Of a stretch of DNA of 64,000 bases, positions 19,600 through 64,000 are shown piece by piece. How positions within the stretch are numbered: position 1 is the first letter of the stretch; each line of letters begins with the position of its first letter. The position numbers and the translations under genes were made by a program. This DNA comes from Candidatus Moraniibacteriota bacterium (GTDB lineage: Bacteria; Patescibacteriota; Minisyncoccia; Moranbacterales; JAPLXC01): contig JAPLXC010000002.1 in the NCBI GenBank assembly GCA_026396275.1, positions 74,922 through 138,921 of the forward strand, written 5' to 3'. The notes beneath the pieces are model-generated. The model was given only the letters and a program-made list of their open reading frames with translations, had not been told where the DNA came from and searched no databases.

Positions 19600-19800
19600 G
19601 GCTCACAAAGGGATTGCTCCCTTACGGCTTTTTCTCGACCCCGTAAGAAAGCGAAGGGTATAAGAGTTGAACCTGTGAGGGGATTGCTCCCCAACCGCAT
19701 TTCGAGTGCGGCGCATTAGACCACTCTGCCAACCCCCCGCTTCTCTACGGGGCGAGGCCGCTTCCTTTATTGAATCTCGGCCACTCTTCCAATTATATAA
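19600..19800 (-). repeat. array of further degenerate tRNA-Ser-like fragments (minus strand)
   Basis: A second ccgca-ctCGAaa-tgcgg anticodon arm at 19698-19715; duplicated variable-arm hairpins ggggagcaatcccc / gggagcaatccc; an unusual T-loop ttcaact; and a class-II-like 5' fragment ggaagag-tg-gccgagattc. Confidence 0.4.
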
Positions 19801-20473: not shown

Positions 20474-20538
20474 AGCATCTAATCCAAAAAATTAGCAAAT
20501 GCGGATAGTAACTCTTTAACATTTTCGTTCTAAAAACG

Positions 20539-21954: not shown

Positions 21955-21997
21955 TTTTTCTTTATTGCTAATAATTATTAATATCAACTAATTCCCT

Positions 21998-22609: not shown

Positions 22610-22641
22610 TCAATATTTTTTAACGCAAAGAATTTAGACCA

Positions 22642-23097: not shown

Positions 23098-23185
23098 AAA
23101 AATCAAGATTCTAAATCAAAATTAAAAAATTTTTAAGTTCTAAGGTCTCTTAATTTCAATTTTTTATCTTTTTGCATTTTGATAT

Positions 23186-23890: not shown

Positions 23891-23894
23891 AATT

Positions 23895-48700: not shown

Positions 48701-49200
48701 GGGTTATCGGAGAGTATGTGAAAACAAATAGTCCGGCTTTGTTAGGCAGCAATGACAATCAGGAAAAAGTCGAGGGAGCGAGCATCGGCGATACCGGAGA
48801 GGCGGCAATCAGACAGACAAATATGGAGTTTTACGGTGTTTACGAAAATCCGTCTTATACGGAAAAAATAATCGCTCGGGCTTATCCGGGAGAAATCTAT
48901 TCTTTTTCAGAAATTCTGGGCGGCTGGTACAAAATAATCCTCAAAGATAAAAAAGAAGGCTGGATCCTGGGCGAGTATATTGAGCCGGCCGGCAATTTGG
49001 AAAACCGGGAATTCGTGAAAATTATTCCCAATGACAGCTCTTATGTTAATATCAGGGAGATTCCCTCTCAATCAGGGAAAGTTGTCAAGAAAATTTATGT
49101 TAGCAACCAGTTTGAAAAACTTGAAGAAAAAGATGGTTGGGTTAAAATAGAACTTTTGGACGGAAGTTTTGGGTGGGTATCAAACCAATTCGCTAAATAA
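36742..49200 (+). CDS. giant (4152-aa) membrane-anchored surface protein. Order: N-terminal TM; Thr/Ser/Gly/Asn-rich beta regions; two LamG/ConA-like lectin domains; PbH1 parallel beta-helix repeats; three ~140-aa DVW-motif super-repeats; a coiled-coil; two TM helices; four C-terminal SH3b domains.
   Basis: A continuous 12.46-kb ORF. TM at aa 27-49. LamG-like regions ...WYWIKANVTG...IADFDDVSV and ...DGSIDEFAIFD. Beta-helix NSEFYNNGVTGAG...ADNIFSINTNGIRLYGNSFFTMNDNIFEGH. Tandem repeats AADVW..R.LT. TM helices at about aa 3614 and 3745. SH3b copies TGWLNVRE...WY(R/K)I(V/I)LKDKKEGWV. Confidence 0.8.
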   Translation: MLKEKCEKIYGKIKNWAIIVRDSSRRHFPLVLAIIFLTPAFILLFLFVNSQLHKQSSYAATFTGKVKVSKQTTTLSTSGDWYTSMAHSGDGVNGDAESGTFNPIHPGQGAGTEPGAGGIAMGHVAMGATTTYAAAQFIGFKPSATGNLDGVQLVFENLTSTNLSNVDLVVEFVRFPSATYSGGWTNYVTGTQGAYTYPSDTQVLRRTVWQFNQELSGENAAPGQFGRATFDFRFDPPVAVTTGGGAGDHYGIRIINMGASTPVFGTWAQAPQSNGFPSINGTIRTIGFNDLDTTNAPTVTMPVVLGGNTVLTTGAMVAANSVPGIGLPTVRRTENEHWTATYSSANGNWTVAGSVSGTQTNKLTTSTNGGTGASWLNDSAVYTTLTSDITGTTNKLCVDSITGFAANQYIDVWDSDTASAQFTILSVNSSDGSCPLSGPSITTTANLTNTNNYTQSKNATVARTTWKQRIIQGAIQVFTQDMPSTTKICVADSSRFSAPTAGTANNIVVWDNNTTTINTNRVVSTSQADGSCTSNNSITISTAITAGTYTTAQSAYVAEYSAHLSNSAAPSNGAVLRWTTFNHPQNPTNSTLLARTTSVNLAYAKSQSPATSSTNYPYLSNRHIFFVAYGDADTTAPADGDIVIVGNGKSDPDSGDSSNLTSDINWATKESHVVTIDRSWDAPMAYSGTNAAAVGDGAGSRANFAAWSQNGGWVSALVTPSSQLGIDNSTNKHYRITIPGKIVVDSDASVALGKSGAAIPESSGHDIYFDTVSPAASTLLTVDSAATTTLTVASTTNFMPGDTIVLDDNNSVPITRIIAAVENSTTITLTAAAVTGYTVAQSAFIAKGPTTELPTGSDRRAGIYTMTGLNGASTPAQSNTRTGRVALYADGSEDFRTSKSDLAVDVDGNIDTGYLGNNSTDAGNTWVDVEDDVVGNWQPLDQVAVAGGTNQLADNNYSSTELGGTDDANQMPVWTGATTKVDAGAGGRNALPTPNMEVAEIGTIPMTNIYNSDYNGGSPLYSSNYNNSSSLTIFNDGANTEVNDAVYFGDQGSNMPYALEFNIGTAMVASADYVWEYYKSGVGWTEFTPRDAYLYQTRTGVTLPLSVDTVNNSLAITLAEGGTVFGLDQIVMIDDNDSDPIYRRLGTSAPTATTLTFSEPVPSGYTVAQGATVTRLNGGQWQSMDPTGIFTSGTGRRIISWTPTNLNGTPAKTTVNGVSAYWVRARISSFTSWTTSPTNQTTPVGMGGIERMSSGVFNVSSGVQEAKVSEVTAGSSFDPNETYILEYGNSPSWTQVLPIVPSAPYTWHINSTGMLSQNTATADFHTANGDLSWGNYTVTAKVQMRTANDATSRKIGVVLRNSLDGNGYGALIEKTSSQQRVGLYPMALGAEGTVFANTTKAFSENSWYWIKANVTGTGASTVLSAKFWADGSGEPGSWDVTYTTTAGQGLWNTGKIGLFADAMIADFDDVSVDNGSVVFSDSFTSTGTWKLKGSINGDLGTITPGTPFTSNYINFTLKHKGGWNGTINPEIGDKIYISPTSTRSYKGLSGTGSSAITTSDTNTVYENVDFEWNPGSSNYTVTGSATGAMGTATPGSAYTATGGKIGLTIPSGSPTATKFGNRMLLLQDNLRRNTGSWVGNNGLGSAALVWPSYTLTSSAITPRYNIEGVSGTATARQNGTIDFWFKANYSGSPSSATHPKGMYLVDYANQGNSERLFIRHTNDGYLEAAVFGGATQNTLLRKSFSATAGQWYHFRLAWDETLNTKRAWLDETAFTSGEGQASTVGTRGANAGIIRIGNTWTYDAPFDGSIDEFAIFDDAIDTSDACDWGVSVGIPIPSAAWTNGQTAGCDDADSNIGTNIFRASFDQTMNPQEGSIMADYAFGNPAMIFTNGADTGNERIRIVTYPQRTRVWVDNTGEKYTPSARIKFGSGYEENATLATLAGWSHNYTYHHKAVRQSSSSPTYSPVLNLKRNTHIWSVEPITQNGATMGAPINAGMGYGMGTIGLSGLGTINFSDVSMENQYTNFAIVTNPFTFLAAKPAQTISNSVFYNFYDRAYTIASKTQGTNYVGAYFVTTHFAAANIGSGYNASLSQNVGIDGSIFMGNRNAYVTVPPVAANGAASFFSGRLYTVQNSEFYNNGVTGAGTSGALNFSSGVAKVTIADNIFSINTNGIRLYGNSFFTMNDNIFEGHVADDVTTLGANYGAGIRVAQTSSSVAIVDTDSIFGRGLWNEADVGLPPNTGTFEAESLIQFTGEGSQLRSPILFGTADYDNMPRVADHYLGSTIPGTDIRGTHSTNEKNIINATTFGYMRTTGAGLPDTLLRTSGGYGWRLEPINADIGLDYTAKLVGVADKPLAATGYLRINSNYGTTNLPTVTLSGLGMTGANLTWTAEPTADEWQQFVVSGTPTESALAELKISTKLDYVVSDSGTSEIVSNATGNYLPALVEDVDKSWTPNQWVGYKFKDANGKVFDIVKNTSQILYLKGTVVPHLLSTTFAALTPGDYVIYNEPYVYLDDVSVLSGTVDTGTLDFHSSGQPVSPWLATGLTAEGVWNAQFSTFSDSAGSFGQLLGDALVAQYADVSDLSPTTTEFDTSLSSTTDDFYLNGAIIFTEGQNKGAVRRISDYTGASKTITVDPALSFAPADEDRFAILAATASSGGSGGGATAAEIWSYAIRRLTDSTLSGGGTLATQSYLDTMKADIIAEIDENEALISGLNDISAADVWSYANRSITDPDAIWEYALTSIGETGSVGKLIKDNLDATISSRGTSDLTAADVWTNATRTLTDYSTDAISLAVWQNATRTLTAYGNDITAADVWNVLSSSLTTVGSIGKQLAENVDVAVSSRASQASLDALNDISAADVWSYSNRTITDPDNIWEYALTSIGETGSVGKLIKDNLDATISSRGTSDLTAADVWLATERTLTSNANFNDPTTAQIATAVWGEANRTLTSYGNDITAADVWSILSSSLTTVGSIGKQLAENVDVATSTRASQSSVDALNDISASDVWTYATRTLTGEVALTSDSRKAIWDTACSILNTSGSVGKLVCDNLDAAVSSRSTLTAADVWSSATRTITNLENPALSAIANSVWSNATRELTAYGNDITAQDVWDVLTSSMTTIDSIGELLITNVDEEISSRSSQSSLDDVSTNVSDIESNVDVPVSTRSSQASLDTHESSESTFRTNTTNTLSDISSDVGDIYINVVAIQSDLSSIDTKIDTLTTTLNSVDAKIDTLDTNIDSIKTTVEDTNIKVSAIQTVTNSILNKWGSYSAADIIGYVDALEDYVGTPDDEASAETLFGRIKEVKEATGSGGTIDLIYAQVQATHNKLLDVELELGYNGKTTSAYDDITAVKNYVDTVENSLATLDSRTSDISSSVSDISSDLKDVTDKIGKVSSDSFSQHFEIKKTDIDYLKNKVIELKAIAEIDRQLIERTISEPIVKVIMEWGSVVIKFIIVNPSDSTDQKIPFKAYLPKEVRQEYIIDLSGLSLNYDATTEQYYVTADIALKAGESVTRAVEIKDIWIISYDEIDSLRKQAEEMAVGLTDTFYNAQAITLKTDINTRLDKVARKQKDNNATPQDHILAYRENQEELKAINENLKGMKDLVLNSGTGKNFLASIGGIQTFATWGIVLILIFGMGALGFFYYALWRKKIVSDGKSETGGLPAGQKTDDMNPVQPVVTPGAPNQNIELPTPSPLALPGFNFSWAKKIVLGLVILSKDISSLIYSLFKKVAAKVASLPKKVLLVIGILVIVTAGTLAFVKYHDYQKEKSEKEKEIVLSVSQSQVPDEADEKKKKVLELVAEIDKKAGEKAEMNKKIDEIMKKDENPEDASQEEKIENKSEASKSSRLTVKDTPTGWLNVRESASTGGNVIGKVYPKESYNYIENQDNWYRIVLKDKKEGWVNGEYVQLEETVGGATTENNSGETPSVKAKENELTIKDTPTGWLNVREQPSASGALVAKIYPGEKYIYLESENGWYKIILKDKKEGWVIGEYVKTNSPALLGSNDNQEKVEGASIGDTGEAAIRQTNMEFYGVYENPSYTEKIIARAYPGEIYSFSEILGGWYKIILKDKKEGWILGEYIEPAGNLENREFVKIIPNDSSYVNIREIPSQSGKVVKKIYVSNQFEKLEEKDGWVKIELLDGSFGWVSNQFAK
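44870..46130 (+). repeat. three tandem near-identical repeats of about 420 bp inside the giant gene. Some stretches over 100 bp are 100% identical between copies.
   Basis: For example 44958-45070 and 45378-45490 are identical (cctcacttccatcggagaaaccggatcggttggaaaattaatcaaggacaatcttgatgccactatctccagccggggaaccagcgacttgacggcggccgatgtttgg). Confidence 0.85.
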
Positions 49201-51978: not shown

Positions 51979-52977
51979 TCAAGCCCTGAGAAGTTTTGTT
52001 CTTCTTCTCCTCGCATGAAACGCCTGATGCACTTCTTTGAGCTGTTGATTGGTTACATGGGTGTAAATTTGCGTTGTCGTAATAGAAGAATGCCCCAGCA
52101 TCGCCTGGACGCTTCTGATATCGGCACCGCTGGCCAGAAGATCAGTCGCAAAACTGTGGCGCAAAGTGTGGGGATGAACGTCTTTAACAAGACCGGCTTT
52201 GGCAGCGTAAAACTTCACAATTCTTTGGACGGAGCGGGGAGTAATTCTTAGAGAAGAGTCGCTTTTTTTATTGTCATTCCGGACTTGATCCGGAATCTCT
52301 TTAGATCCTGAATCAAGTTCAGGATGACATTTGCGATGGATTTTTTTGGCGATTCGCACGAATAGCGCCGGATCAATATCCATTCTTTTATTTAAATATT
52401 TTTCCAATGCCTTTTTAGCAGTGTCGGAGACAAAAACAATCCGGATTTTTCCTCCTTTACCCCGAACGCTGAATTCCTGTTTGGCCAAATTTATCTGGTC
52501 GCGATTGATGTTCACCAGTTCCGAAACGCGAAGTCCGGCTGAAAAAAGAAGTTCCAAAATCGCCCGGTCGCGCAGCGTTTTCAAATCATCTCCGGAAGCA
52601 CTTTCCAGGAGGCGGTCCAGTTCATCGGCTTCCAGAAACTCAACGGCCTGAACCGGATTTTTTCCCACTTCTATTTTTTCCGGCTGAAGCGCCTCAATGT
52701 CGCGTTTGGCCAGATATTTCAAAAAGTTGCGAAGAGCAATGACATGGTAATTCTGGGTGATTTTTTTAAGTTCTTTACCCTTCTTGTCTTGGTAGCGGTT
52801 AAGACGCAAACGGTATTTTCTCACCAGATCATCCGTGATTTCCCCGGGGCTGGTAACTCCGGCCCAATTCAAAAACCGCTCGAGATAATGCCGGTAGTTT
52901 TCAATCGTTTTAGGGGACCGGCCGCGCTCAATTTCGAGATATTCCAGGAAATCTTTGAGAAGACCGTTTAAATCCAT
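51979..52977 (-). CDS. xerC: tyrosine site-specific recombinase, XerC/XerD-like, carrying an in-frame MITE insertion
   Basis: Core-binding N-domain; catalytic R...HPHTLRHSFAT...LGHSSITTTQIYTHV (Tyr). An extra segment ...CHPELDSGSKEIPDQVRNDNKKSDS... corresponds to MITE copy 4. Confidence 0.8.
   Translation of the reverse strand: MDLNGLLKDFLEYLEIERGRSPKTIENYRHYLERFLNWAGVTSPGEITDDLVRKYRLRLNRYQDKKGKELKKITQNYHVIALRNFLKYLAKRDIEALQPEKIEVGKNPVQAVEFLEADELDRLLESASGDDLKTLRDRAILELLFSAGLRVSELVNINRDQINLAKQEFSVRGKGGKIRIVFVSDTAKKALEKYLNKRMDIDPALFVRIAKKIHRKCHPELDSGSKEIPDQVRNDNKKSDSSLRITPRSVQRIVKFYAAKAGLVKDVHPHTLRHSFATDLLASGADIRSVQAMLGHSSITTTQIYTHVTNQQLKEVHQAFHARRRRTKLLRA
52272..52329. mobile_element. MITE-like element (TGTCATYC...GRATGACA family), copy 4, in-frame inside xerC/D
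   Basis: tgtcattccggacttgatccggaatc...cctgaatcaagttcaggatgaca. Confidence 0.55.
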
Positions 52978-53395: not shown

Positions 53396-54601
53396 TTGGA
53401 AGGATCAAATTCTATTAGTAAACAATTGTTGGTATCACGCTTTCCGTTTCTGGGACGCTTGCGGCTGAAAAATATCCACACAAAAGTTTACAAATATCAG
53501 CGGGATCTGGCCGACTTTATCAAAAAACGCAGGACCGTCAAATTGCTTCATCTGCTCCGCAATTATTCGGCGCTGGTGGTAGTAATTTCCAGCGCCATAC
53601 TTGTCGCGGCGACCAATGTGGCAGCTAGCAAAGGTTCAGGCGGTTTTTTGTTTGGCTCCGGGAGCGGAGACGAAGAGCAACTTATAGCTGTCAGCAAAAA
53701 AATTGACGCCCAGTCAAGCCGCAAGAGTAATCTGGCCCTTGTCCCCTTGGCTAAATCCGGCATAGCGGTTGATCCGGATGCGAAAGACGATTTTGAATCC
53801 GAGGCCATTAATCCCATCCAGGGCCAGGTAATGATGGTTAGCGTCAATACCTCACTTAGAGATCCCGAGGAAGAGGGGGGAGTGGAAATTTACACAGTGC
53901 GCACGGGAGACACGGTGAGCGCCATCGCGGCCCGCAACAGCATTACTGTCAACACGATTCTTTGGGCCAATGATATTGATAACGTTGACTCCATTATGCC
54001 GGGAGATAAAATTTTCATTCTTCCGGTCGCCGGCGTCGGTCATACCGTGAAAAGTGGAGACACTCTGGATTCTATTGCGAAGAAATATAAAGCGGATAAA
54101 GAAAAGATTATTACTTTCAACGGCCTTCCGGCCGATGGAACAATCCGGGAAGGCGACGAGATTATTATTCCTGGCGGGCAAAAGGAAGTTCCCCAAAGTC
54201 CTGGAACAGCCAGTGGCCTTCTTCGGCAGTACGCCACTCCTTTGGGCGGCACTCCGCTTATTTCCGGCTGGAGAAAGCTGGATGGAAGAGCGGGAGCGGG
54301 GCACAGATTTCCTTATGGATATTGTACCTGGTATGTTTCCCAGCGGCGCTTTATTCCCTGGGGCGGAAATGCCGGGGCTTGGCTTTATAACGCCAAAGCC
54401 GGCGGTTATCAAACCAGCAAGGCCCCCCGAGTGGGAGCAATTATCGTCACTGCCGAATCCTGGTGGGGACATGTCGGGATAGTGGAAAAAGTAAGCGGCG
54501 GATCAGTCACTATTTCGGAGATGAATTACAATCGATGGGGAAAAGTGAACAAACGGACACTGGCGACTTCCAGTCGAGTGATAAAAGGATATATTTATTA
54601 A
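53396..54601 (+). CDS. secreted peptidoglycan hydrolase: two LysM domains plus a C-terminal CHAP amidase/peptidase
   Basis: LysM motifs (YTVRTGDTVSAIAARNSITVNTILWAN; HTVKSGDTLDSIAKKY). CHAP catalytic Cys (GYCTWYV) and His (WGHVGIV). Confidence 0.75.
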   Translation: MEGSNSISKQLLVSRFPFLGRLRLKNIHTKVYKYQRDLADFIKKRRTVKLLHLLRNYSALVVVISSAILVAATNVAASKGSGGFLFGSGSGDEEQLIAVSKKIDAQSSRKSNLALVPLAKSGIAVDPDAKDDFESEAINPIQGQVMMVSVNTSLRDPEEEGGVEIYTVRTGDTVSAIAARNSITVNTILWANDIDNVDSIMPGDKIFILPVAGVGHTVKSGDTLDSIAKKYKADKEKIITFNGLPADGTIREGDEIIIPGGQKEVPQSPGTASGLLRQYATPLGGTPLISGWRKLDGRAGAGHRFPYGYCTWYVSQRRFIPWGGNAGAWLYNAKAGGYQTSKAPRVGAIIVTAESWWGHVGIVEKVSGGSVTISEMNYNRWGKVNKRTLATSSRVIKGYIY

Positions 54602-54878
54602 CTGACAACTTTACAACTGACAACTGATAACTGATGACGAAAAACTAGCAACAAGACGGCTCGCTGAAAATCGGGCTGTTTTTATTGCATTTTTTATTCT
54701 TTCTGTTATATTAAGGGCAGAAAATTGTAGTACCTTTTAGAGCGTTAGGATTGACAAAACAAGAAATTTGAACTTTAATAGAGCATCAAGATCTTTAACA
54801 ATCTATAAGTTAGCTATTTTCGAAAGAGAAACACTTAAAAAAACAGCCAATATTTTGGCGGAAAACAAGGAGGGAAAG

Positions 54879-55322
54879 ATGAGAAAAATAGTAGGAATAT
54901 TTATCGCTATTATGCTGTTACTAACAGCAAACTGTTTACAGGCAGGATCAGGAGATAATCTGGAGAAAAAAATCGAAAGAAAAATTATAAAGCAGATAAT
55001 TTCATTTGTGGACGAAAGACCCATTGAAATTGTATGGGCAGACAAACTTAAAATCATAAGAAAAGAATCGCAACCTTACTGGACTGGCAGAATAATTCAT
55101 TTCCGTGCTGGCTACCTTCCTGCGGAGATAAAGTTAAAAAAAGGAAAGAAAATCAGAAAAGCTGATATTATGTTTATGGCTGGATACGGGGAAGAGGATG
55201 GGAAAATAGTTTCAGAAGCGTGTGAGATTTTAAACATCGCTTATCAAGACAGTCCAAATTACGAGTCAGAAAAGAAAAAATTCATGGGACTGGTAAAAGC
55301 TACCAAGCCATTCGAACGCTAA
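54879..55322 (+). CDS. hypothetical secreted protein
   Basis: Signal peptide MRKIVGIFIAIMLLLTANCLQA. RBS AAGGAGGG. The start was moved from the track's 54768 to ATG 54879. Confidence 0.35.
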   Translation: MRKIVGIFIAIMLLLTANCLQAGSGDNLEKKIERKIIKQIISFVDERPIEIVWADKLKIIRKESQPYWTGRIIHFRAGYLPAEIKLKKGKKIRKADIMFMAGYGEEDGKIVSEACEILNIAYQDSPNYESEKKKFMGLVKATKPFER

Positions 55323-55490: not shown

Positions 55491-57476
55491 GTGCAGAAGA
55501 AAATAAAAAATAAAAGTGGTATTTTTTACAAAAGGCAACTTTTTAAAATGTTAGCTTTTTTGGCGTTTGCCTTTTTTTTGCTAAATCTTCGTCTTAGTTT
55601 AGAAATGGATTTTTCCGGCAAAAACGAGGGATACTTATATACAGTATCTTTTACAAAAACTTTAGGCCAGGGACTTTCTGGTCCCCTTGTAGTAGATCCA
55701 AATTCTGAACTATGGAAAGGCGATAACTGGAAAAAGTGGGAAAATGTTAACAAGGATCTACAGAAGAAATTAAAATCATACGAAGCACCCTGTGGACCTA
55801 CCGACATCGGCTGTTGGTTTAAACAGTTGCTTTACTCGGTATTTCGCGTTGTAGCTTTGTTTTTGGGAATTGCTGGTGTCTTGTTTGGTTGGGTAATAAA
55901 GCCGGATAACGTTTATCTTGTTCTTAGAGATAATGAAGCGATTTATGCTGGCTGGAAAGCAGTTCGTGACTTTTTAAATTTAACTTTCATTTTAGTTTTG
56001 CTTTTCAGTGCTTTTTGTACCATATTTCAAGTTGAAAAATATAATCTCAAAAAAATACTTCTCACTCTAGTAATAATGGCACTACTGGTTAATTTTAGTT
56101 TTCCTATCGCTCGCTTTATCATTGATGTTTCTAATGTCACTTTTTACTTTATCATTAACAATGCATTCAGTGGTGGCAACGGTGAAGGAATTTTCACTTC
56201 TTTTGCTAATTACTCCGAGCTTGTTGGCATTCTTACAGCTAAACAGGCAGGGCAAGCCGACTTTTGGTATCTCATTATGATAATTATCTTTACCTTTATT
56301 TTAATGATCACACTTTTTGTTATTGCTATTCTTTTTATAATTCGATTAGCAGTTCTCGCCATCCTCATTATTCTTTCTCCCGTTGGCTTTGTAGCTGCGA
56401 TCTTCCCCTCAACCAAACACTATGCTGATGAATGGTGGGAATCACTTTTTAAATACTCTTTTTTCGCCCCTATAATGGGCTTTGCAATGTATCTTTCCCT
56501 GAGAGTTTTAGAGGCAATGAAACAAAAAGGTATAGATATTAGTTTTCTTAAAGAGGCACAAAAAAATGTTAGTGGAGATATTGATCCCAATATGTTTGGC
56601 AAAATGGCATTCTTTGCTATCCCCGTTATAATGCTCTGGGTAGGCATAATTGCCTCTACAAAATTGGCCGGCGGAGCTGGAAACTGGGTGGCTGGGCAAG
56701 CTAAAAAATTCGCCGGGTGGGCGAGAAGACAACCCTGGCGAGGAACAAAGGCGCTGGTAGGTGCAACAGGAATTCCGGGAGGGGCCAAACAAGCATGGAG
56801 TCAATTCAGGAGAACGGGAAAATTATTTGGCAAACAAACGCCTATATACCGCGGTTCTGAAAGCAGAGCCGAGTCGGAAGCCAAATGGGCGACCCGTTTT
56901 GGTGTTAGGGGGGCGAGGGAACAAGATATTAAAAGAAGAGCGGAGGAAATGAAAAAGAATAATGTAAGTGTTACGGAGCGAAAAGATTTGGCGGCAAGGG
57001 GAAATGCAGCAGCTGTTTATAGCTTGGCTGATGATAAATTGATAGATCAAGAAACTTACGATAAGTTTTTGGCAGCGAATAAGGATAAAGATATTCATGA
57101 AACCCTTGACTTTAAGTTGAAGCAAACTAGGACAGACCTTATTGCAATTAGAAAATCTGGGGACCAAGAGGAGATACAGAAAGTTCAGAATGCCAATCCA
57201 AACTGGAATATCAATCAGGTTATGGATCACATTGTCCGCCAGGAGATGGGCAAAATGAACGCTGAAAAATGGTCCGATCAAGATTGGGATAAAATACTTG
57301 CTCCTCCTCCCCAAGGTGCTACTCCTACACAGGTTCAGGACTGGCAAAGAAAAATTGCGGCAACCCAATGGACATTTTCTCCTCAAAATATGACTGCATC
57401 AGCACAAAGCGAAATTAGAAAACGGATAAATCCAAATAAAAAAGCCGCGCTTAATGCGCAAAACATACCAGTCTAA
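55491..57476 (+). CDS. VirB6/TrbL-like polytopic membrane protein with a long soluble C-terminal extension (T4SS-like system)
   Basis: 661 aa, about 8 TM helices in the first 400 aa, then a hydrophilic C-terminal domain. Sits in the same locus as the four pilin paralogs. Confidence 0.4.
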   Translation: MQKKIKNKSGIFYKRQLFKMLAFLAFAFFLLNLRLSLEMDFSGKNEGYLYTVSFTKTLGQGLSGPLVVDPNSELWKGDNWKKWENVNKDLQKKLKSYEAPCGPTDIGCWFKQLLYSVFRVVALFLGIAGVLFGWVIKPDNVYLVLRDNEAIYAGWKAVRDFLNLTFILVLLFSAFCTIFQVEKYNLKKILLTLVIMALLVNFSFPIARFIIDVSNVTFYFIINNAFSGGNGEGIFTSFANYSELVGILTAKQAGQADFWYLIMIIIFTFILMITLFVIAILFIIRLAVLAILIILSPVGFVAAIFPSTKHYADEWWESLFKYSFFAPIMGFAMYLSLRVLEAMKQKGIDISFLKEAQKNVSGDIDPNMFGKMAFFAIPVIMLWVGIIASTKLAGGAGNWVAGQAKKFAGWARRQPWRGTKALVGATGIPGGAKQAWSQFRRTGKLFGKQTPIYRGSESRAESEAKWATRFGVRGAREQDIKRRAEEMKKNNVSVTERKDLAARGNAAAVYSLADDKLIDQETYDKFLAANKDKDIHETLDFKLKQTRTDLIAIRKSGDQEEIQKVQNANPNWNINQVMDHIVRQEMGKMNAEKWSDQDWDKILAPPPQGATPTQVQDWQRKIAATQWTFSPQNMTASAQSEIRKRINPNKKAALNAQNIPV

Positions 57477-57487
57477 ATTCAAATTAC

Positions 57488-58513
57488 ATGAAGATACCTT
57501 TTATTAAACTTAATAGGGAAATACAAATGGAGTTTTGTACAATTCCAAGTGTTGTTTCTTCAACAAAAAATCCTGACGATGAGACAAGAGAAAATATAAT
57601 AAAGAGACATGAGAAATTTCTAAAACTACCTGAAGAAATAAAAGACAAACTTGTTTTCCAAGAAACCGGTAAAAGAATTCAAGAAATTGGACAAGCATCT
57701 AGTTTGCAATTGTTGCAACTGGCTGACATCGCCCGGGCGGTGAGGAATTATTATTTCGGTGAGCTGAAACTGGAAGACATGCCGGCGGTTTTAGCGAGGG
57801 AAATTGGGATTGATTTAAATAAAGCTCGGGAAATTGCCAATCAAGTTGTTCAGAAAATAATCAGGGATAAGTCATATATTAAAACCGCTGAGACGATTTC
57901 TCTTCCTCTCTCCCAAGCGCTCCAGAAATATCCCGCCTTGGGTGAGCAGTTGATTACGGTAAATCCCATTCGGCTCAAAATCCTTCCCACTCCCGTCCGC
58001 CCTTCGGCAAAAAACTGGATTACCGATTACCACGAAAAACTGGGCGTAGGAAAGCACGAGGTAATGGAGCGGGGAAATTATCTTTACCATAGCGAAAACA
58101 CCAAGCGCCTGACGCCGGGAGAAAGGCAGAAACTGGCAGTGATCTTGAAGTCGCTGGATGAAAATGAGCCGATTGCGGTGGACGCGGAGAAGCAGGAAAT
58201 TGTGTTCCCTCACCCCGAGACCCTCTCCCAAAGGGAGAGGGGGCAAGTTAACAAAGCTAATTCAGCTAATAAAGTTGGCTATCGTTTCTCCTCGCCCCAG
58301 AGGTTCGCGGTTGAGAAACAAGAACCAGCGCCGCCTCCCCAACGGCCTACGTCTCCTCCTGCGCCGCCAGAGGTACCACCAGCTTTTCACAAGCCGCCGC
58401 GGCATGAGCACCAGCCTTATCATATTTATCCTTTGGGATATCCAGAACCGCCCAGACCGCCCGAGAAGACAGAGCCGAAAATTGATGGAAACACAGTAGA
58501 TCTAAGAAATTAA
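57488..58513 (+). CDS. hypothetical protein with a Pro-rich C-terminus (T4SS-associated by position)
   Basis: 341 aa. C-terminal PAPPPQRPTSPPAPPEVPPAFHKPP.... Contains the GC-rich hairpin ccctctccc-aaa-gggagaggg in frame. Confidence 0.3.
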   Translation: MKIPFIKLNREIQMEFCTIPSVVSSTKNPDDETRENIIKRHEKFLKLPEEIKDKLVFQETGKRIQEIGQASSLQLLQLADIARAVRNYYFGELKLEDMPAVLAREIGIDLNKAREIANQVVQKIIRDKSYIKTAETISLPLSQALQKYPALGEQLITVNPIRLKILPTPVRPSAKNWITDYHEKLGVGKHEVMERGNYLYHSENTKRLTPGERQKLAVILKSLDENEPIAVDAEKQEIVFPHPETLSQRERGQVNKANSANKVGYRFSSPQRFAVEKQEPAPPPQRPTSPPAPPEVPPAFHKPPRHEHQPYHIYPLGYPEPPRPPEKTEPKIDGNTVDLRN

Positions 58514-58566
58514 CCTAATTTCTAGTTTTTAATTTTAAAAATCCAAATTGTTTCAAAATCCAAATT

Positions 58567-58950
58567 ATGCCAAATCAAATCCAAAACCCAAAGGCAAAAA
58601 AGAGTTATGACTTGGAAGAGAGAACGGCAAAATTTGGAGAAAACGTGATTGGATTTGTCCGCACCCTGCCAAAAGATCCGGTAAATGTTCCCTTGATAAA
58701 CCAGGCAGTTAGATCAGCTACAAGCATTGGAGCTAATTATATGGAAGCAGATGGCGCGGAATCAGGGAAAGATTTTAGACATAAAATCGCGATTTGTAAG
58801 AAAGAAGCCAAAGAATCAATGCACTGGCTAAGAATGATTGCCAAAGCCAATGCCGGAAAAAAAGACGAGTGCAGAAAACTTTGGAAGGAAGCTCATGAAT
58901 TAGCCCTCATCTTTTCAGCTATTTTACGGACAGCTGGTAAGAAAAAGTGA
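58567..58950 (+). CDS. four-helix-bundle protein (23S rRNA IVS-encoded protein family)
   Basis: SIGANYMEADGAESGKDFRHKIAICKKEAKESMHWLRMIA, the signature of the TIGR02436-like family. Confidence 0.65.
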   Translation: MPNQIQNPKAKKSYDLEERTAKFGENVIGFVRTLPKDPVNVPLINQAVRSATSIGANYMEADGAESGKDFRHKIAICKKEAKESMHWLRMIAKANAGKKDECRKLWKEAHELALIFSAILRTAGKKK

Positions 58951-59015
58951 TTTTAATATTTGAGCATTTGAAATTGATTTGGAACAATTTGAACTTTGGT
59001 ATTTGGATTTACAAG

Positions 59016-59342
59016 ATGCTTAATAATCTAGTTAAAATTAGTGTTTGGAAACGTGATTTCTGCTTCATAATTCCATTTGTAGCTGTTGCTAATGCTGGTG
59101 TAATCACCGACGCTCCCACGGTGGCGGAAGTCCTTTACAAAGCCCTCCAGTTTCTTTTGTCGGTTTTCGGATTTCTTGCTATAATAGGACTGGTAATTTC
59201 CGGAGTTCTTTACCTTACCGCGGCGGGCGATCAAAGAAGAATTGAAAAAGCTAAGAAAGCGTTTTATTATTCAATTGTAGGAATTGTAATAGCGCTGGGA
59301 GGATGGGTAACTATTAAAACGGTTATTTCATTAACGGGTTAA
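59016..59342 (+). CDS. T4SS-type pilin (TrbC/VirB2-like) paralog 1
   Basis: Hydrophobic LYLTAAGDQRRIEKAKKAFYYSIVGIVIAL core. The start is uncertain (track start 58947). Confidence 0.55.
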   Translation: MLNNLVKISVWKRDFCFIIPFVAVANAGVITDAPTVAEVLYKALQFLLSVFGFLAIIGLVISGVLYLTAAGDQRRIEKAKKAFYYSIVGIVIALGGWVTIKTVISLTG

Positions 59343-59422
59343 TGAGTTAAGTTTTTTCAGCCCGTTGGCTCGTGAACTCGTTAACTGAAAAATAAATAAT
59401 AAAGATAGAAAGGCGGTGAGTT

Positions 59423-59782
59423 ATGAAAACAAAAATCAAAAGAATCGGCTATAGCATAGCGTCGGCTGCGGTTTTAGCGGCTCCGCTGGTGGTGCTGGCT
59501 CAATTTGACCGTCCAGGCGGAACCAACCTTCCCGAGGGAAGAATGTTTGATATTGTCACCAACGCGATGATGTGGCTCTTAGCAATCGTCGGAATCATCG
59601 GCGTTATCGGTTTTGCCATTGCTGGAATTTTGTACCTCACGGCGGCGGGGGACGAGACCCGAATTGAAAAAGCCAAGTCGGCAATGCTGATGTCAATCAT
59701 TGGAGTAGTAGTAGCGCTGGTAGGACTGGTGATTATGCGGGCGGTACAGACCTGGCTGGGAGGAAGCGCGAGCCGGTTTTAA
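59423..59782 (+). CDS. T4SS-type pilin (TrbC/VirB2-like) paralog 2
   Basis: Signal peptide ...VVLAQFD. Core ILYLTAAGDETRIEKAKSAMLMSIIGVVVAL. Confidence 0.6.
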   Translation: MKTKIKRIGYSIASAAVLAAPLVVLAQFDRPGGTNLPEGRMFDIVTNAMMWLLAIVGIIGVIGFAIAGILYLTAAGDETRIEKAKSAMLMSIIGVVVALVGLVIMRAVQTWLGGSASRF

Positions 59783-59960
59783 GCTGCTGCGCAAGAAGCA
59801 AGTGCCAATTTACGAATATTTTTTAAATTTTGGAAATTAACGGATTAAAGGATTAACGAATTATCTCAATTCGTTAATTCGTTGACTTGTTAATAAATAA
59901 TAAAGTTTCAACCTCTTTCAATTCCGCTTCGGCGGGGAAGAGGCCAAATCTTTTGGAAAT

Positions 59961-60320
59961 ATGAGAAAAATAAAAAAACAAATCTTAATTTCCTTTTCAG
60001 CCCTGCTGTCTCTTGCTCCTCTGGCAGCTATCGCCCAGTGGGATCCAGCCAATTACAGCACTACCAATCTCCCGGCCGGAAGGGTCTATGATATTATCTT
60101 CAATATCCTGTTTTGGCTCTTGGCGATTTTTGGAGCCGTCGGCATTATCGGTTTTGTGATTTCCGGAATACTTTATTTAACAGCTGCGGGAAATGAAGAG
60201 CAGATCACTAAAGCCAAGTCGGCAATGAAATGGTCGCTGGTGGGAGTGGTAGTGGGGCTGGCGGGATTGGTTATTCTTCGGGCGGCAACTACCGCTCTTG
60301 GAGGATTTTTCTATTTTTAG
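59961..60320 (+). CDS. T4SS-type pilin (TrbC/VirB2-like) paralog 3
   Basis: Signal peptide ...LAAIAQWD. Core ILYLTAAGNEEQITKAKSAMKWSLVGVVVGL. Confidence 0.6.
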   Translation: MRKIKKQILISFSALLSLAPLAAIAQWDPANYSTTNLPAGRVYDIIFNILFWLLAIFGAVGIIGFVISGILYLTAAGNEEQITKAKSAMKWSLVGVVVGLAGLVILRAATTALGGFFYF

Positions 60321-60335
60321 AATTATTTTGAAGAA

Positions 60336-60818
60336 ATGAAAAAAACCAAAATACTTATTTTACTAGCTTTAGGAGTTATTCTGCTTTTAAGTGCGAGTGT
60401 TTCTAACGGTCAACAGTGTCCTGAGGGCTACACGTGGGACCCGGAAGGGCAGCAGTGTATACTGACTGGTAGCCCCGGACCAGGTCCAGGACCTTCGCCA
60501 ACTGGAACTTGTCCTAATGGTTTTGAAAAAAAAGCGGGCGTGTGTTTCCCAACCAACACCGGGCTTTCCGATACACCGGTAGCAGATATTATCGAGAATT
60601 TCCTGATGTGGCTCTTGGGAATCTTTGGATTTATCGCCATCATTGCTTTCATAATTTCCGGTATCCAATATCTTACTTCAGCTGGTGAAGAGAAAGCGAT
60701 TGAAACCGCCAAGCGCAATATGAAATGGTCAATCGTCGGAGTGATTATAGCGCTGGCGGGATTTGTTATTATTTTGGCAGTTGATGCGGCCTTAAAAGCA
60801 TCATCGACATATTTTTAG
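60336..60818 (+). CDS. T4SS-type pilin paralog 4 with an extra Cys-rich N-terminal module
   Basis: Signal peptide; CPEGYTWDPEGQQC...GPGPGP...CPNGFEKKAGVC; then core IQYLTSAGEEKAIETAKRNMKWSIVGVIIAL. Confidence 0.6.
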   Translation: MKKTKILILLALGVILLLSASVSNGQQCPEGYTWDPEGQQCILTGSPGPGPGPSPTGTCPNGFEKKAGVCFPTNTGLSDTPVADIIENFLMWLLGIFGFIAIIAFIISGIQYLTSAGEEKAIETAKRNMKWSIVGVIIALAGFVIILAVDAALKASSTYF

Positions 60819-60842
60819 TTACTTTTAATAAACAAAAACAAA

Positions 60843-60881
60843 GAGAGGCACAGTTTGTTAGCTGTGCCTCTTGATTTTTTA
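60843..60881. terminator. bidirectional Rho-independent terminator between the pilin operon and the convergent minus-strand genes
   Basis: agaggcacag-tttgttag-ctgtgcctct followed by TTGATTTTTT. Confidence 0.6.
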
Positions 60882-61538
60882 AGCGATTTTTTTGATTTTC
60901 ACGAAAAATCCTCCCCGGTTTTTCGTGAAATTGTCCGGATTGTCTTGAGTATTGTTGATACTTAAGTACAAATCCGTTTTTTCCGTTATGGTAATTGACT
61001 CCCTCCAGCCGATGGGAATTATTTTGCCATTAACTTTGGCAATTAGATATCCCACCAGCTTGTCAGTAGCAGGAAAAGTATACTGGAGCGGAGAGATCCA
61101 GGGATTTCCCATGGCGTCTCTTGCACCATGGGGCTTAATTTTCCAAGGGTAAGTTCTACCACCATTGGAAAATATTTGCTCATATTCCCCGCTGGCATCC
61201 AGTTCATATTGTCCTACTTCCAGCTCCAGTTTTTTCTGCCACCCTTTGTCTGTGTGGCTCCACTGGCTCGGAGAAAAAATTATTGTTTTTTCCCAAGTTC
61301 TTATAACTGGCGGAGGCGGAGTGACGGGAGCAGGAGCAAAAGCCGGAGCAGAAGCAACTGGTGCTGGAGTTTGTAAATTTGTTTGTTTCACTTCGGCGGG
61401 CGGCTTTGGCCATGACCACAAGGTTCTTATACCTGGAGAGAAGTGGAAATAGAAAGCGAGAAATATTGTGATTAAACTGACTAGTAGAATAACCACAGCT
61501 TTAACATTTCCACTATTGCCGTTTAAGATTCTGTTCAT
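60879..61538 (-). CDS. hypothetical membrane-anchored secreted protein with a Pro/Ala-rich linker
   Basis: N-terminal TM. PAPVASAPAFAPAPVTPPPPV linker. C-terminal beta-rich domain. Confidence 0.3.
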   Translation of the reverse strand: MNRILNGNSGNVKAVVILLVSLITIFLAFYFHFSPGIRTLWSWPKPPAEVKQTNLQTPAPVASAPAFAPAPVTPPPPVIRTWEKTIIFSPSQWSHTDKGWQKKLELEVGQYELDASGEYEQIFSNGGRTYPWKIKPHGARDAMGNPWISPLQYTFPATDKLVGYLIAKVNGKIIPIGWRESITITEKTDLYLSINNTQDNPDNFTKNRGGFFVKIKKIA

Positions 61539-61544
61539 TTTCTA

Positions 61545-63074
61545 TCACCTCCTGCTCCGAGATCTGGCTCTAGGCTTGGCTTTAGGCTTAAAGAGCTTTT
61601 CAAGAGCAGAGGACAGCACTTCATTCAAGCCGGGAATGTTGTATATTTTTTCCTCTTTGCTGGGGGTCATTTTTCCCCTCGTTGCCAGTATGTAATCAGC
61701 AAATTCTTTGTCGGCAAGATACGGCAGTTGTTCTTTTAAGAGTTGGAGGACTTTCTTGGTTGTCGCGTATTCGGTTACAATTGCTTCCTGTTTATATTTC
61801 ATGGTAACCTTCGCATCGCGAGCTACTTTCGCCTTTTCGTCAAGCGTCGGGTTATACAGCCGGGACCCGATGATATTTATGTGGAAATCTTTTTCCAGCC
61901 CAGTTCTTTCTCTTCCGGTTTCTTTTTTGTCTCCAACTTCAACCGGCACCTTTTTAACTTCAGAACAAGCTTTCTCTAGGTTATTAAGGTTGCCTTTTAT
62001 CACTTCAATCCATTCCTTACTTTTGGAACTTTTTTCCAGCGGAAGGTCAGCAAATGAAAGCCTTAATTCATTGATATCTTTTGAAATTTGTTTTGCAGTG
62101 GCGGTGCCCGGAGAGCTTAATATTTCCTGCGACCTGATAATCAACTCTTGAATGAGTTCTGCTGCCAAATTCAACCGCCTATTCTGGGATTCAACCAACT
62201 TGTCCCTTTCTTTTTCGGAATCAATCTTTGTGCGCTTGATTAATTCTTTCTCACTCTTTTCCTTGTTCTCAGTGGCTGTTTCAAGACGCTTGATCAATTC
62301 CTCAAGTATTTGTTTTTTCCCCTCGAGGTCGGCGATTTTGCGGCGGTTTATTCCAAGTCTCCCGAGGAGTATTTCGGTGCGTGAACCCGTAAGTTCCGTC
62401 CGCAGTTGCTCGCTCAAAGATCTTTGCTCGGTGATTACTTCGTCAGTAGTTCTGTCTCCAGTTTCGGACTGGAATAACTCCTGAACCCCGGATGCTAAAG
62501 CATTTTTTAATTCCACTTCCACTATGAGGAAGTCTTTCAATTCAGGCGGGTATATTGTGTAGAAAACGGTGTTCGTGAGCGTAATGCTTCCATCCATAGT
62601 CAGATAATCCTCTGTAACATCAAAACGCTTGACTTCTATAGATTTGGTGCTTATCTTGTCCGTGGGAAGGGTGATAATTATTCCTTCCGTTCCAACCTCA
62701 TCCGTCCTCCCGGTAAATTTGTCAATCAGCAGGCTGACCTCAAGAGGATTAACCCAGCGGATAATTCTTTTCCCCAAAAGTTCATAGAGAGCGTAAATCA
62801 GTCCGCAAAAAGCGATGAAAAGAAAAATTTTACCCCACCAGCCTAATACCAACATTCCCATAGTGAACACGGCTGCTAAAAATATGAATAAGGCTGTCAC
62901 TGTCCAGCGGAAAATTTTCCACTCGAGCTTTCTAATTCCCCTTACATCCTCTTTTGCCCTTAAGTTTAGGATTTTTTGGAATATGTTATCCCCTTTTTCT
63001 TTTTTTGAAACCCTGACCAATAAAATCTTTTTAAGAAAAGTACCGAATTTAGTAAAGTGCCTTAAAATGTTCAT
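61545..63074 (-). CDS. SPFH (band-7/flotillin-like) domain membrane protein with a long coiled-coil tail
   Basis: N-terminal TM, SPFH-like core (...KRFDVTEDYLTMDGSITLTNTVFYTIY...), and about 250 aa of coiled-coil. Confidence 0.45.
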   Translation of the reverse strand: MNILRHFTKFGTFLKKILLVRVSKKEKGDNIFQKILNLRAKEDVRGIRKLEWKIFRWTVTALFIFLAAVFTMGMLVLGWWGKIFLFIAFCGLIYALYELLGKRIIRWVNPLEVSLLIDKFTGRTDEVGTEGIIITLPTDKISTKSIEVKRFDVTEDYLTMDGSITLTNTVFYTIYPPELKDFLIVEVELKNALASGVQELFQSETGDRTTDEVITEQRSLSEQLRTELTGSRTEILLGRLGINRRKIADLEGKKQILEELIKRLETATENKEKSEKELIKRTKIDSEKERDKLVESQNRRLNLAAELIQELIIRSQEILSSPGTATAKQISKDINELRLSFADLPLEKSSKSKEWIEVIKGNLNNLEKACSEVKKVPVEVGDKKETGRERTGLEKDFHINIIGSRLYNPTLDEKAKVARDAKVTMKYKQEAIVTEYATTKKVLQLLKEQLPYLADKEFADYILATRGKMTPSKEEKIYNIPGLNEVLSSALEKLFKPKAKPRARSRSRR

Positions 63075-63313
63075 TTCTCCTTCTCCTTTCTTTCCTATCT
63101 TTTCTAAATTTTTATTTAATTTTTAAGGACCAAGAGCCCTTGTTTTTTACTTCAGACCCATTATCTGGTGTCCGAATGGCCTTTTAGTAGAGGCCGAATC
63201 GTTATCCACGATAACGCCTTATCCTAGTATAAAAGCAAAGAAAAGTCAAATGTTAAATTGTTAGGCGGCTATGCCATTAAATTGTTACATTGTCACATCA
63301 TTAAACTGTGAAG

Positions 63314-63342
63314 TTGACAAGTATGAATAGTGTTGCTAATAT
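63314..63342 (+). promoter_or_regulatory. sigma70-like promoter upstream of nusA
   Basis: TTGACA, 17-nt spacer, TAATAT. Confidence 0.45.
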
Positions 63343-63492
63343 GGCATTGTAATGATGTATTACGGAAGGTTCGCGGAAAGCGAATCTTCTTTGTTAAAAA
63401 GCTACTAATTACGAATTATGTACTAATATACTAATAACTAATTGATAATTCGTGTATTTGTACGTGATTAGTATTTAGTAGACAAAATAATT

Positions 63493-64000
63493 ATGGCAAG
63501 ATCAAAAAAGCTTAGTGATACACAAAGCCCAAGTGGGAAACTTGGCGAATTTGGCAGTGCAATTTTGCAGATTGCCGAAGAAAAAGGAATCTCCAAGGAC
63601 AAAGTAATTGAGACAATTGAAGCAGCCCTGTCCGCTGCCTATAAAAAGGACTACGGAAAAAGGGGCCAGCACATCCGGGCGGAATTCAACGAGGTTAGTG
63701 GCGAGGCAAAATTTTATTTAATCAAAGAAGTGGTGGATGAAACAACGCGCGAATTCCCCTCTCCTGAGGCAGCAGAAGAAAAAACAGAATCGGCCGCAGT
63801 CACTAAAAAAGCGGAAACGGAAAAGAAAACTGGAAAAAAGAAGGTGAGAAAAAAGAAAAGGCAGGTAAGAAAAAAACTGTTTCCACTGAAACTACTGCCG
63901 AAGAATCTGCCTCACCGGCCGGCGAGGAAAAAATCCCCCGTTATAATCCGGAAAGAGACATCCTTCTTGAAGAAGCGAAAAAACTAAACAAAAAAGCTAA
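63493..64000 (+). CDS. nusA: transcription termination/antitermination factor NusA (5' part; runs off the window, probably in a different frame after ~63835)
   Basis: NusA N-domain IAEEKGISKDKVIETIEAALSAAYKK...IRAEFNEVSGEAKFYL. After a Lys/Glu-rich insert, the NusA-like continuation (IPRYNPERDILLEEAKKLNKKA...) is in frame 3, so the track's stop at 63987 is probably an artefact of a frameshift in an A-run. Confidence 0.6.

Follow-up and report, generated by a model that had tools for sequence, protein, structure and literature searches.

We report here an analysis of a type IV secretion system (T4SS) locus in a 64-kb window (the whole stretch of DNA that was analysed) from a metagenome-assembled genome (MAG) of Candidatus Moranbacteria. 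The region (55491–60818, forward strand, locus tags NT136_00740–00770) holds seven genes, which encode a VirB6-like protein, a protein with a Pro-rich tail, a four-helix-bundle protein and four small proteins; the closest database proteins, which are 100% identical, are NT136_00740, _00745 and _00770, annotated as "hypothetical proteins" in a Candidatus Moranbacteria MAG. All four small proteins exceed the gathering threshold (26.6 bits) of the Pfam family PF18895 (T4SS_pilin), and these pilins are co-encoded with VirB6 in the same operon and with PrgI and VirB4, which lie 33 kb upstream beside a fifth pilin. We read the region as the VirB6/pilin module of a chromosomal, conjugation-derived T4SS, similar to the mating-pair formation (MPF) FATA type of monoderm bacteria and typical of Patescibacteria, and give this reading a probability of roughly 0.78. 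It is noted that an earlier note, made from the letters alone, had proposed a T4SS locus with a 661-aa VirB6-like protein and four tandem pilin paralogs, and the gene content, the coordinates and the membership in PF18895 all bear this out.

The four pilins are termed, in gene order, types a, b, c and d. Pilin 1 (type a; 59016–59342, +) has 108 aa when translated from the ATG at 59016, which is most likely the start rather than the GTG at 58947, and scores 41.0 bits with PF18895. Pilin 2 (type b; 59423–59782, +) and pilin 3 (type c; 59961–60320, +) have 119 aa each, with scores of 34.5 and 40.0 bits, respectively, and pilin 4 (type d; 60336–60818, +), with 160 aa and a Cys-stapled N-terminal ectodomain, scores 36.6 bits. 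All four also match the NCBIfam model NF045849 (Mbov_0395, the "pilin-like conjugal transfer protein" of the integrative and conjugative elements (ICEs) of mycoplasmas), the cut-off of 40 being passed by pilin 4 (42.2 bits). Moreover, pilin 4 scores 23.9 bits (E 5e-5; gathering threshold 27.9) with the TrbC/VirB2 family PF04956, for which precomputed matches are present on ten homologues.

Alignment of the paralogs gives a common core of two transmembrane (TM) segments, with an invariant Y-L-T-x-A-G ... I ... K, and divergent, exposed N-termini, as the earlier note had described. The motif that it wrote for this core is real and looser than written, the exact form (D/N/E)E.(R/K)I.KAK fitting only paralog 2, with one or two positions missed in paralogs 1, 3 and 4. 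Signal peptides and TM segments were judged by hydropathy together with an AxA-site heuristic. Based on this heuristic, each pilin has a charged n-region, a hydrophobic h-region, a small-x-small site at residues 25–27 and two TM-like helices of about 30 residues; both the signal peptide and the TM core, the lack of which had been named as evidence against the pilin assignment, are thus found in each pilin. The predicted cleavage sites (marked by a slash) are, for pilins 1–4, ANA/G, VLA/Q, AIA/Q and SNG/Q, the leader of pilin 1 ending as ANA/GVITDAP and the signal peptide of pilin 3 as AIA/QWDP. Among the 19 orthologues of type a, most have a leader of a mere 6–10 residues, too short for a signal peptide, usually ending in A-x-A/G (often A-[HQR]-A) before GV(I)[ST]DAP; the type-a pilins of the window and of loci L024 and L029 have a signal-like leader of 26–29 residues with the same A-x-A/G end. 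The Cys-rich module that had been noticed in paralog 4 is present as a CX12C pair (CPEGYTWDPEGQQC) and a CX10C pair (CPNGFEKKAGVC) joined by the linker GSPGPGPGPSPTGT. The AlphaFold2 (AF2) model of pilin 4 (pLDDT 77) has a signal helix, beta-hairpins at residues 32–43 and 63–72 at the two Cys pairs, and helices at 82–114 and 119–157, in agreement with the heuristic assignment of a signal peptide and two TM segments.

For comparison, 75 related loci were fetched from species-representative genomes with the 341-aa product of the gene following VirB6 as the probe, and six more were added via exact-protein look-ups. Two architectures are seen among them. In about 50 loci the genes for VirB6, the 341-aa protein, PrgI, a TraC-like protein and VirB4 are contiguous, and in 19 loci, the window included, VirB6 and the 341-aa protein are followed by pilins. 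The order within these 19 arrays is always a-b-c-d, with a of about 90 aa, b of about 117–122 aa, c of about 120–165 aa and d of 134–488 aa; eleven consist of a-b-c-d and nothing else, three stop after b, a further three carry an additional copy of b or d, and two have a two-domain type e as their last gene, the truncated variants being cut by contig ends. In the closest relative, L004 (GCA_040961635.1), the locus is the same and likewise holds a PF05635 four-helix-bundle gene. The pilins of L004 are the best reciprocal partners of those of the window, with identities of 69% for a (a87), 78% for b, 67% for c (c196) and 58% for d, and the corresponding identities to BMS3Abin15 (L005) are 49%, 64%, 46% and 69%, to be compared with core identities of 45–62% among the window's own paralogs. 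Across genomes the mean core identity is 67% for b (20 orthologues), which is the most conserved, 58% for c, 55% for d and 47% for a, and N-terminal motifs specific to the types (GVITDAP; NLPxGR[VM][YF]DI; CX10C-FPxNTGL) are kept. The most variable is type d, the distal N-terminal part of which reaches up to about 400 aa with 0–30 Cys, and most of its orthologues keep a membrane-proximal CX(8–14)C-[FIV]-P hairpin; pilin 4 of the window is a short version, in which the second Cys pair is the conserved one and the first is lineage-specific. Since the order is fixed and the one-to-one orthologues are closer than the paralogs of the same genome, the comparison supports the view that the four genes represent ancient, subfunctionalised subunit types rather than fresh duplicates or recently amplified, exchanging variants. 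The suggestion of the earlier note that the paralogs reflect antigenic or functional diversification of a surface filament is, therefore, better borne out in its functional half, and its antigenic half is disfavoured by these ancient orthologous types in their fixed order.

The gene at 55491–57476 (+) encodes a VirB6/TrbL-like polytopic membrane protein, which has 661 aa from a GTG start and 642 aa, from M20, in the NCBI annotation. Since about 6–7 hydrophobic segments (residues 17–39, 112–139, 157–213, 253–309 and 368–394) are followed on the C-terminal side by a hydrophilic tail of 242 aa, it can be called an extended VirB6 in the sense of a recent review (PMC12857230). Residues 186–383 align to Pfam TrbL, a match at E<=1e-3 to the same family is present in 12 of 39 homologues (best 1.3e-7), many of the 514 homologues carry precomputed PF04610 and PF19590 matches, and there is a weak match to NF046089 (CD3337/EF1877). 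The product is best described as a divergent VirB6-like protein.

The next gene (57488–58513, +) encodes the 341-aa protein, which consists of a helical domain of about 245 residues and a variable, Pro-rich C-terminal tail, and has neither a TM segment nor a signal peptide. The earlier note had listed it as a Pro-rich hypothetical. Judged from its conservation in related loci, it is instead a conserved soluble partner of VirB6 and not an incidental neighbour: it is present in 76 of 82 sources, adjoins VirB6 wherever the contig allows and follows VirB6 in essentially every locus, with 49% and 41% identity to the gene right after VirB6 in L002 and L001, respectively. The family comprises at least 121 unannotated proteins (homologues P0121–P0240; loci L001–L081). 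The partner has no match in Pfam or NCBIfam; residues 1–245 are modelled by AF2 with a pLDDT of about 95, and a Foldseek search of this model against the PDB gave no significant fold match (best E 0.38).

The locus as drawn by the earlier note began with VirB6 and left out a gene upstream of it (53396–54601, +) for a cell-wall hydrolase with two LysM domains and a CHAP domain (Pfam, 85 and 65.8 bits, respectively). In 15 other loci, among them 12 with a pilin array, the gene immediately preceding VirB6 is an orthologue that aligns over nearly the full length (E 1e-125 to 1e-160). This enzyme is a good candidate for a VirB1-like component, on the evidence of its conserved position, and the locus is better drawn with the hydrolase gene as a part of it; according to a 2025 survey (PMC12102498), VirB1 is missing from most genomes that bear pilins. 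A terminator-like hairpin (54653–54682) follows the hydrolase gene. A 184-aa open reading frame (ORF) at 54768–55322 has neither a Pfam match nor a homologue among the related loci.

The second half of this T4SS, with the families assigned by Pfam, is found at 21998–25706 (+), referred to as locus 1. It consists of the fifth, type-e pilin (21998–22609, +), PrgI/VirB3 (22642–23097, +; Pfam PrgI), a TraC-like protein of 234 aa (23186–23890, +) and the VirB4 ATPase (23895–25706, +; Pfam P-loop_TraG/AAA_10). The type-e pilin matches PF18895 in two stretches (58.3 bits), which agrees with the duplicated-domain pilin that had been recognised there, and is 57% identical to the fifth pilin gene of L005 (e275). 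In BMS3Abin15 (L005, 4604–12965) the five pilins stand together between a methyltransferase–SBP pair and the genes preceding NusA; the counterparts of these flanks in the window (19919–22609 and 60879–63987) are separated by 38 kb, type e being found next to one and types a–d next to the other. Since the flanks of the BMS3Abin15 array correspond to the left side of locus 1 and the right side of the pilin locus, the system has been rearranged between the two genomes: either the T4SS genes together with about 30 kb of other genes came to lie inside an ancestral array, or the array was split by the rearrangement. The remaining genes of the window are housekeeping ones (IF-2, L19, KsgA, UvrD, the CCA-adding enzyme, NusA and 14 tRNAs), no family of relaxases or coupling proteins (VirD4/TcpA) is present among the scanned genes of the 64 kb, and the composition shows no break at the locus.

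We now consider the intergenic elements of the array. Two palindromes of the TTAACG type, which can fold as hairpins, lie between a and b (59326–59390, +), where the element overlaps the pilin 1 stop codon and has a minimum free energy (MFE) of −22.8 kcal/mol (z −1.9), and between b and c (59836–59894, +), where the 118-nt stretch 59783–59900 folds with −27 kcal/mol (z −2.9). The second holds a perfect inverted repeat (TTAACGAATT-ATCTC-AATTCGTTAA) with 10-nt arms and a 5-nt loop. The arms are built of tandem 8-nt units, (ATTAACGN)x3, loop, (NCGTTAAT)x3, followed by AATAAATAAT, and a 21-mer shared by the two hairpins has four matches against 0.04 expected and none elsewhere in the window. The two hairpins are homologous, and the inverted repeats that had been pointed out here are real. 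In L004 the two corresponding intergenic regions hold three copies, one of which (4291–4340) is nearly identical over a long stretch to the element between b and c of the window, with proteins that are 43–78% identical; among the five copies, 17 pairs are kept, two of them via compensatory changes. In 1.2 Mb of related Moranbacteria loci, clusters of the motif are confined to these pilin intergenic regions. A metagenome scan with a 14-base query gave mostly chance matches and no frequency, so that it establishes no more than the existence of this palindrome type away from pilin loci: among the matches listed, at least six contigs without pilin genes have the same architecture, five of them low-GC and similar to the Candidate Phyla Radiation (CPR), with one copy just upstream of a gene that reads, from its N-terminal sequence, as ribosomal protein L9 (rplI) and another between genes that read likewise as infC and rplT. 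In the low-GC, CPR-like metagenome contigs L097, L116, L120, L174 and L197, palindromes of tandem ATTAACGN units with inverted copies lie between housekeeping genes. The tandem-ATTAACGN palindromes may belong to an undescribed repeat family, either terminator-like or similar to repetitive extragenic palindromic (REP) elements.

In 16 of 16 arrays the region between b and c, at 105–316 nt, is long and shows significant structure (median z −4.3); the region between a and b is structured in only 5 of 19, and c and d are separated by a short region with a median of 28 nt. A canonical terminator, made up of an A-tract, a stem and a T-tract, occupies the place between b and c in 14 related arrays, and a TGnTATAAT promoter comes after it. 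In the window the terminator scan did not report the two TTAACG hairpins, the stems of which are followed by AAATAAT and no U-tract, and the sigma-70 scan gave no promoter within the two palindrome-bearing intergenic regions. (A MAFFT alignment of the regions upstream of all pilins proved uninformative; pairwise repeats and a targeted alignment were informative.) Based on the copies at non-pilin sites elsewhere and on the terminator and promoter at the same position in other arrays, the palindromes of the window are most likely a lineage-specific, REP-like hairpin at a transcript-boundary position and not a T4SS operator. Such a hairpin may act in termination, in stabilisation of the transcript or as a processing site. 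An identity as integron attC sites was also considered and rejected, since the arms depart from GTTRRRY and a gene order that stays constant speaks against mobile cassettes. In addition, the start codon of pilin 3 is preceded, at a distance of 17 nt, by a GC-rich hairpin capped by a C(UUCG)G tetraloop (59912–59943, +), which could mask or expose the ribosome-binding region; the 66-nt stretch that contains it (59895–59960) folds with −19.1 kcal/mol (z −2.9), a stability reached by none of 200 shuffles. The array is closed by a strong, bidirectional intrinsic terminator (60843–60872, both strands) with a 13-bp stem, six GC pairs and T-runs on both strands, which is common to the array and to the convergent gene at 60879–61538; the 67-nt stretch 60819–60885 folds with −22.3 kcal/mol (z −4.7).

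A cassette (58532–59017, +) that resembles an intervening sequence (IVS) of 23S rRNA fills the space from the partner gene to pilin 1, and this is probably the least expected thing in the region. Its ORF (58567–58950, +) encodes a 127-aa four-helix-bundle protein similar to the 23S rRNA IVS protein and to bAvd, which exceeds the cut-offs of both PF05635 (58.1 bits, gathering threshold 33.8) and TIGR02436 (75.9 bits, cut-off 24), as had been anticipated for an embedded IVS-type gene. Long, imperfect terminal inverted repeats surround the ORF (repeats I1, I9, I21 and I25 pair 58532–58593 with 58960–59017), and the flanks are paired in the MFE fold. The cassette sits between protein-coding genes and not in an rRNA helix, the window having no rRNA. 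A PF05635 gene is found in or beside the T4SS cluster in 14 loci, in nine of them directly after the partner gene. The flank pairing of these genes averages about −36 kcal/mol against −22 kcal/mol for controls (Mann–Whitney p = 1e-6) and is stronger than the control mean in 13 of the 14. In L004 the gene (5020–5501) lies between c and d and is bracketed by repeats unrelated to those of the window, and BLASTP detected no similarity between its product and that of the window. With different positions, unrelated repeats and no BLASTP similarity, the PF05635 cassettes seem to have been inserted independently. ORFs of PF05635 are known from CPR rRNA insertions too, and compared with the ORF-bearing 23S rRNA IVS of Coxiella burnetii (PMC4990558), the window cassette has in common a unit of about 0.45 kb, terminal repeats made of short tandem motifs and a PF05635 ORF, and differs in lying in an intergenic region of a protein-coding operon rather than in an rRNA helix. 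The IVS-like cassettes suggest that such selfish hairpin elements are not restricted to rRNA genes. A diversity-generating retroelement, in which the four-helix bundle would act as bAvd, was rejected, as no reverse-transcriptase family is present among the scanned window genes, template/variable repeat pairs not having been searched for.

Some further features of the window are noted. A giant ORF of 4152 aa (36742–49200, +) carries four bacterial SH3 domains at its C-terminal end, shows no other match in Pfam, and occupies the only GC-rich stretch of the window (0.49–0.51 against about 0.40). A tandem pair of tRNA-Ser(CGA) genes (19415–19502 and 19651–19738, both −) is separated by 150 nt, the second being much weaker in Rfam (41.7 versus 56.5 bits). 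After the array, two convergent genes (60879–61538 and 61545–63074, both −) have no Pfam families and are conserved only in L004, the position being taken in BMS3Abin15 by a gene for a 211-aa protein and a Band_7 gene.

The following pathway can be proposed for the system. Pilins b, c and d, and in this genome also a, would be exported by the Sec machinery and cleaved at the predicted AxA/Q or AxA/G sites, and would then be parked in the membrane as two-helix hairpins, with both termini outside and the YLTAAG-E..I.KAK loop in the cytoplasm. The CHAP/LysM enzyme would open the wall locally, after which VirB4, VirB3 and VirB6 would extract the pilins and polymerise them into a pilus or into a conduit that spans the cell wall. 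From the conservation patterns, type b is probably the bulk (major) subunit and type d probably displays a host- or surface-contact module. The hairpins after genes a and b would split the array into transcript segments, with c and d, which are separated by 15 nt, being co-transcribed. By analogy with Candidatus Southlakia epibionticum, the T4SS most likely serves host interaction or epibiotic growth rather than conjugation. Joining these points, one can imagine a heteropolymeric surface structure of five obligate, non-redundant VirB2-like subunit types, the genes of which keep a fixed order, with b forming the shaft and d carrying a disulfide-stapled, species-hypervariable ectodomain for host recognition, with the VirB6 partner as an unrecognised core component, and with an operon repeatedly colonised by IVS-like cassettes, where cleavage of the RNase III type could uncouple the pilin mRNA from that of virB6. 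We put this combined picture forward tentatively and consider it less likely than not.

Several other explanations should be weighed against this one. Could the pilin paralogs be interchangeable variants, swapped or differentially expressed on one filament for antigenic or host-range variation, as has been suggested by analogy with the VirB2 paralogs of Bartonella and Anaplasma (PMC12102498)? The exposed N-terminal segments do differ between the paralogs, the type-d ectodomain varies between genomes in length (134–488 aa) and Cys content (0–30), and separate transcript segments could permit differential expression. If this were so, however, the invariable order in 19 of 19 arrays, the one-to-one orthology with orthologues closer than own-genome paralogs, and the conservation of the type-specific N-terminal motifs would be hard to understand; moreover, each copy is a complete ORF with a start of its own, silent or partial cassettes are absent, the DNA identity between copies is merely 60–72% over 54–96 nt, and all array pilins were reported to be essential in S. 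epibionticum (PMC10633639), which together make this explanation improbable. A stronger competitor, which we still consider unlikely, is that the two-TM proteins are membrane- or wall-spanning parts of a translocon (a short stalk or a conduit) that form no extended pilus. Such a role is what one would expect for monoderm T4SSs, and it would fit the match of all four to a mycoplasma ICE model, the Gram-positive type of the machinery (PrgI, a CHAP hydrolase and no outer-membrane core), and the wording of the recent review, which claims only the "potential to elaborate conjugative pili" (PMC12857230). Nevertheless, five subunit types, one of them with a large ectodomain, suit a surface-exposed structure better, and the core has the same length and shape as the VirB2/TrbC pilins, to which the Pfam TrbC match also points; besides, this explanation overlaps with the pathway proposed above, where a conduit is already allowed.

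The palindromes were regarded by the earlier note as possible shared operator sites, that is, as sites for a regulator that co-ordinates the T4SS genes. This has in its favour that they lie just upstream of the AATAAATAAT box and of the pilin 2 and pilin 3 starts, that the element between b and c has stayed nearly identical to its L004 copy despite the divergence of the proteins, and that the motif clusters occur only in the pilin intergenic regions of the Moranbacteria loci. By contrast, no such palindrome precedes VirB6, the LysM-CHAP gene, PrgI, VirB4 or the pilin of locus 1 in the window, arms made of 8-nt tandem units would be out of helical phase, the same architecture occurs in low-GC, CPR-like contigs at non-pilin sites (beside rplI and in the infC–rplT region), and the equivalent position in 14 other arrays is occupied by a terminator and a promoter. 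The two compensatory pair changes keep the stem, a pattern that is also compatible with a DNA palindrome. We judge the operator explanation to be slightly more improbable still than antigenic variation. As for the locus being part of an integrated conjugative element that transfers DNA, a tyrosine recombinase gene is present at 51979–52977 (−), and the VirB4, VirB6 and PrgI families descend from conjugation systems (PMC12102498). This recombinase resembles XerC/D, however, and the flanks are housekeeping genes (IF-2, L19, KsgA, NusA, UvrD and tRNAs) with a synteny common to dozens of MAGs, while neither a relaxase nor a type IV coupling protein (T4CP) was found in the 64 kb and no break in composition occurs at the locus; a mobile element is thus the least credible explanation here and a very remote one.

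Several observations weigh against the preferred reading, a T4SS pilin array with the subunit roles proposed above, and are to be set beside its probability. The match of the VirB6-like protein to Pfam TrbL has 21.9 bits, below the gathering threshold of 25.9, and its alignment profile found only spurious low-complexity matches in the PDB. The alignment profile of the pilins found no sequence match in the PDB at E<=10, and Foldseek with the pilin 4 model retrieved from the PDB only generic helical hairpins (best E 0.8). Since these searches gave no relative, the kinship to VirB2 rests on the profile models, the TrbC/VirB2 one being below threshold and NF045849 just above its cut-off. The pilin signal peptides come from the heuristic and not from SignalP, the roles of types b and d rest on conservation patterns only, no filament has been shown for any family member, and in the absence of a U-tract the terminator role of the TTAACG hairpins follows from their position alone. 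The inspection was limited to 64 kb, and a relaxase or T4CP could sit elsewhere in the genome.

With an essential, Gram-positive-like T4SS described in Ca. Southlakia epibionticum, which lacks both relaxase and coupling protein and has a pilin array whose members are all reported to be essential (Wang et al. 2023, PMC10633639), and with a survey of 441 VirB2 arrays of 2–11 genes in 383 assemblies, in which PF18895 is among the profiles, the average identity within an array is 25% and a role in host adaptation is suggested (Quinonero-Coronel et al. 2025, PMC12102498), the array being a real one, the interpretation as a T4SS with an array of pilin paralogs is correct at its core and of a kind already published; the locus is a real but ordinary example. 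The array survey is repeated in the 2025 review (PMC12857230). The T4SSs of Patescibacteria belong to the small number of machines that have proved essential to an epibiotic way of life, and the present locus leaves that picture unchanged. The comparison with related loci sharpens the question from one of variable pilins to one of a defined multi-subunit structure, on the basis of four types in fixed order, one conserved and one with a variable ectodomain, a partner with no match among solved structures and a linked CHAP/LysM hydrolase. The types and partners that are now named are concrete targets for proteomics, cryo-electron tomography and genetics.

Finally, we compare the locus with known systems. 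In pilus operons of the pap/fim type, a hairpin follows the gene of the major subunit, and genes of specialised subunits come next, one of them adhesin-like. The array is similar in having a conserved subunit gene, a structured intergenic element and then less conserved subunits, one with an extra domain, and it differs in that the folds and the assembly machines are unrelated and the role of the window hairpin is deduced from position only. With the MPF-FATA systems of monoderm bacteria (pCF10 Prg, pIP501, Tn916-like elements and mycoplasma ICEs) the present system shares PrgI/VirB3, VirB4, a VirB6-like protein, a CHAP hydrolase and NF045849 pilins; those systems have, by contrast, a relaxase and a T4CP, are mobile elements and are generally without pilin arrays. 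The VirB2 paralogs of Bartonella, Anaplasma and Rickettsia (PMC12102498) are likewise tandem VirB2-like genes near a T4SS with differing exposed segments, but they are discussed as lineage-specific amplifications for antigenic variation, whereas the paralogs of the window are old, ordered and orthologous across genomes. The surveyed arrays are most abundant in Microgenomatia and Saccharimonadia (PMC12102498), and the window belongs to Moranbacteria/Paceibacteria. It differs further from these and from the system of Ca. Southlakia epibionticum ML1 (SEML1_0006–0019; PMC10633639; PMC12102498) in that its T4SS genes form two loci 33 kb apart, in that four types in fixed order are accompanied by a fifth, two-domain type elsewhere, and in that a conserved, unannotated VirB6 partner and an IVS-like cassette are added. 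The likeness to the Southlakia and surveyed systems is nonetheless extensive: they too have a chromosomal T4SS of the Gram-positive type with VirB1-, VirB3-, VirB4- and VirB6-like components, tandem divergent PF18895 pilins, no relaxase or coupling protein nearby, and housekeeping neighbours of the KsgA type.

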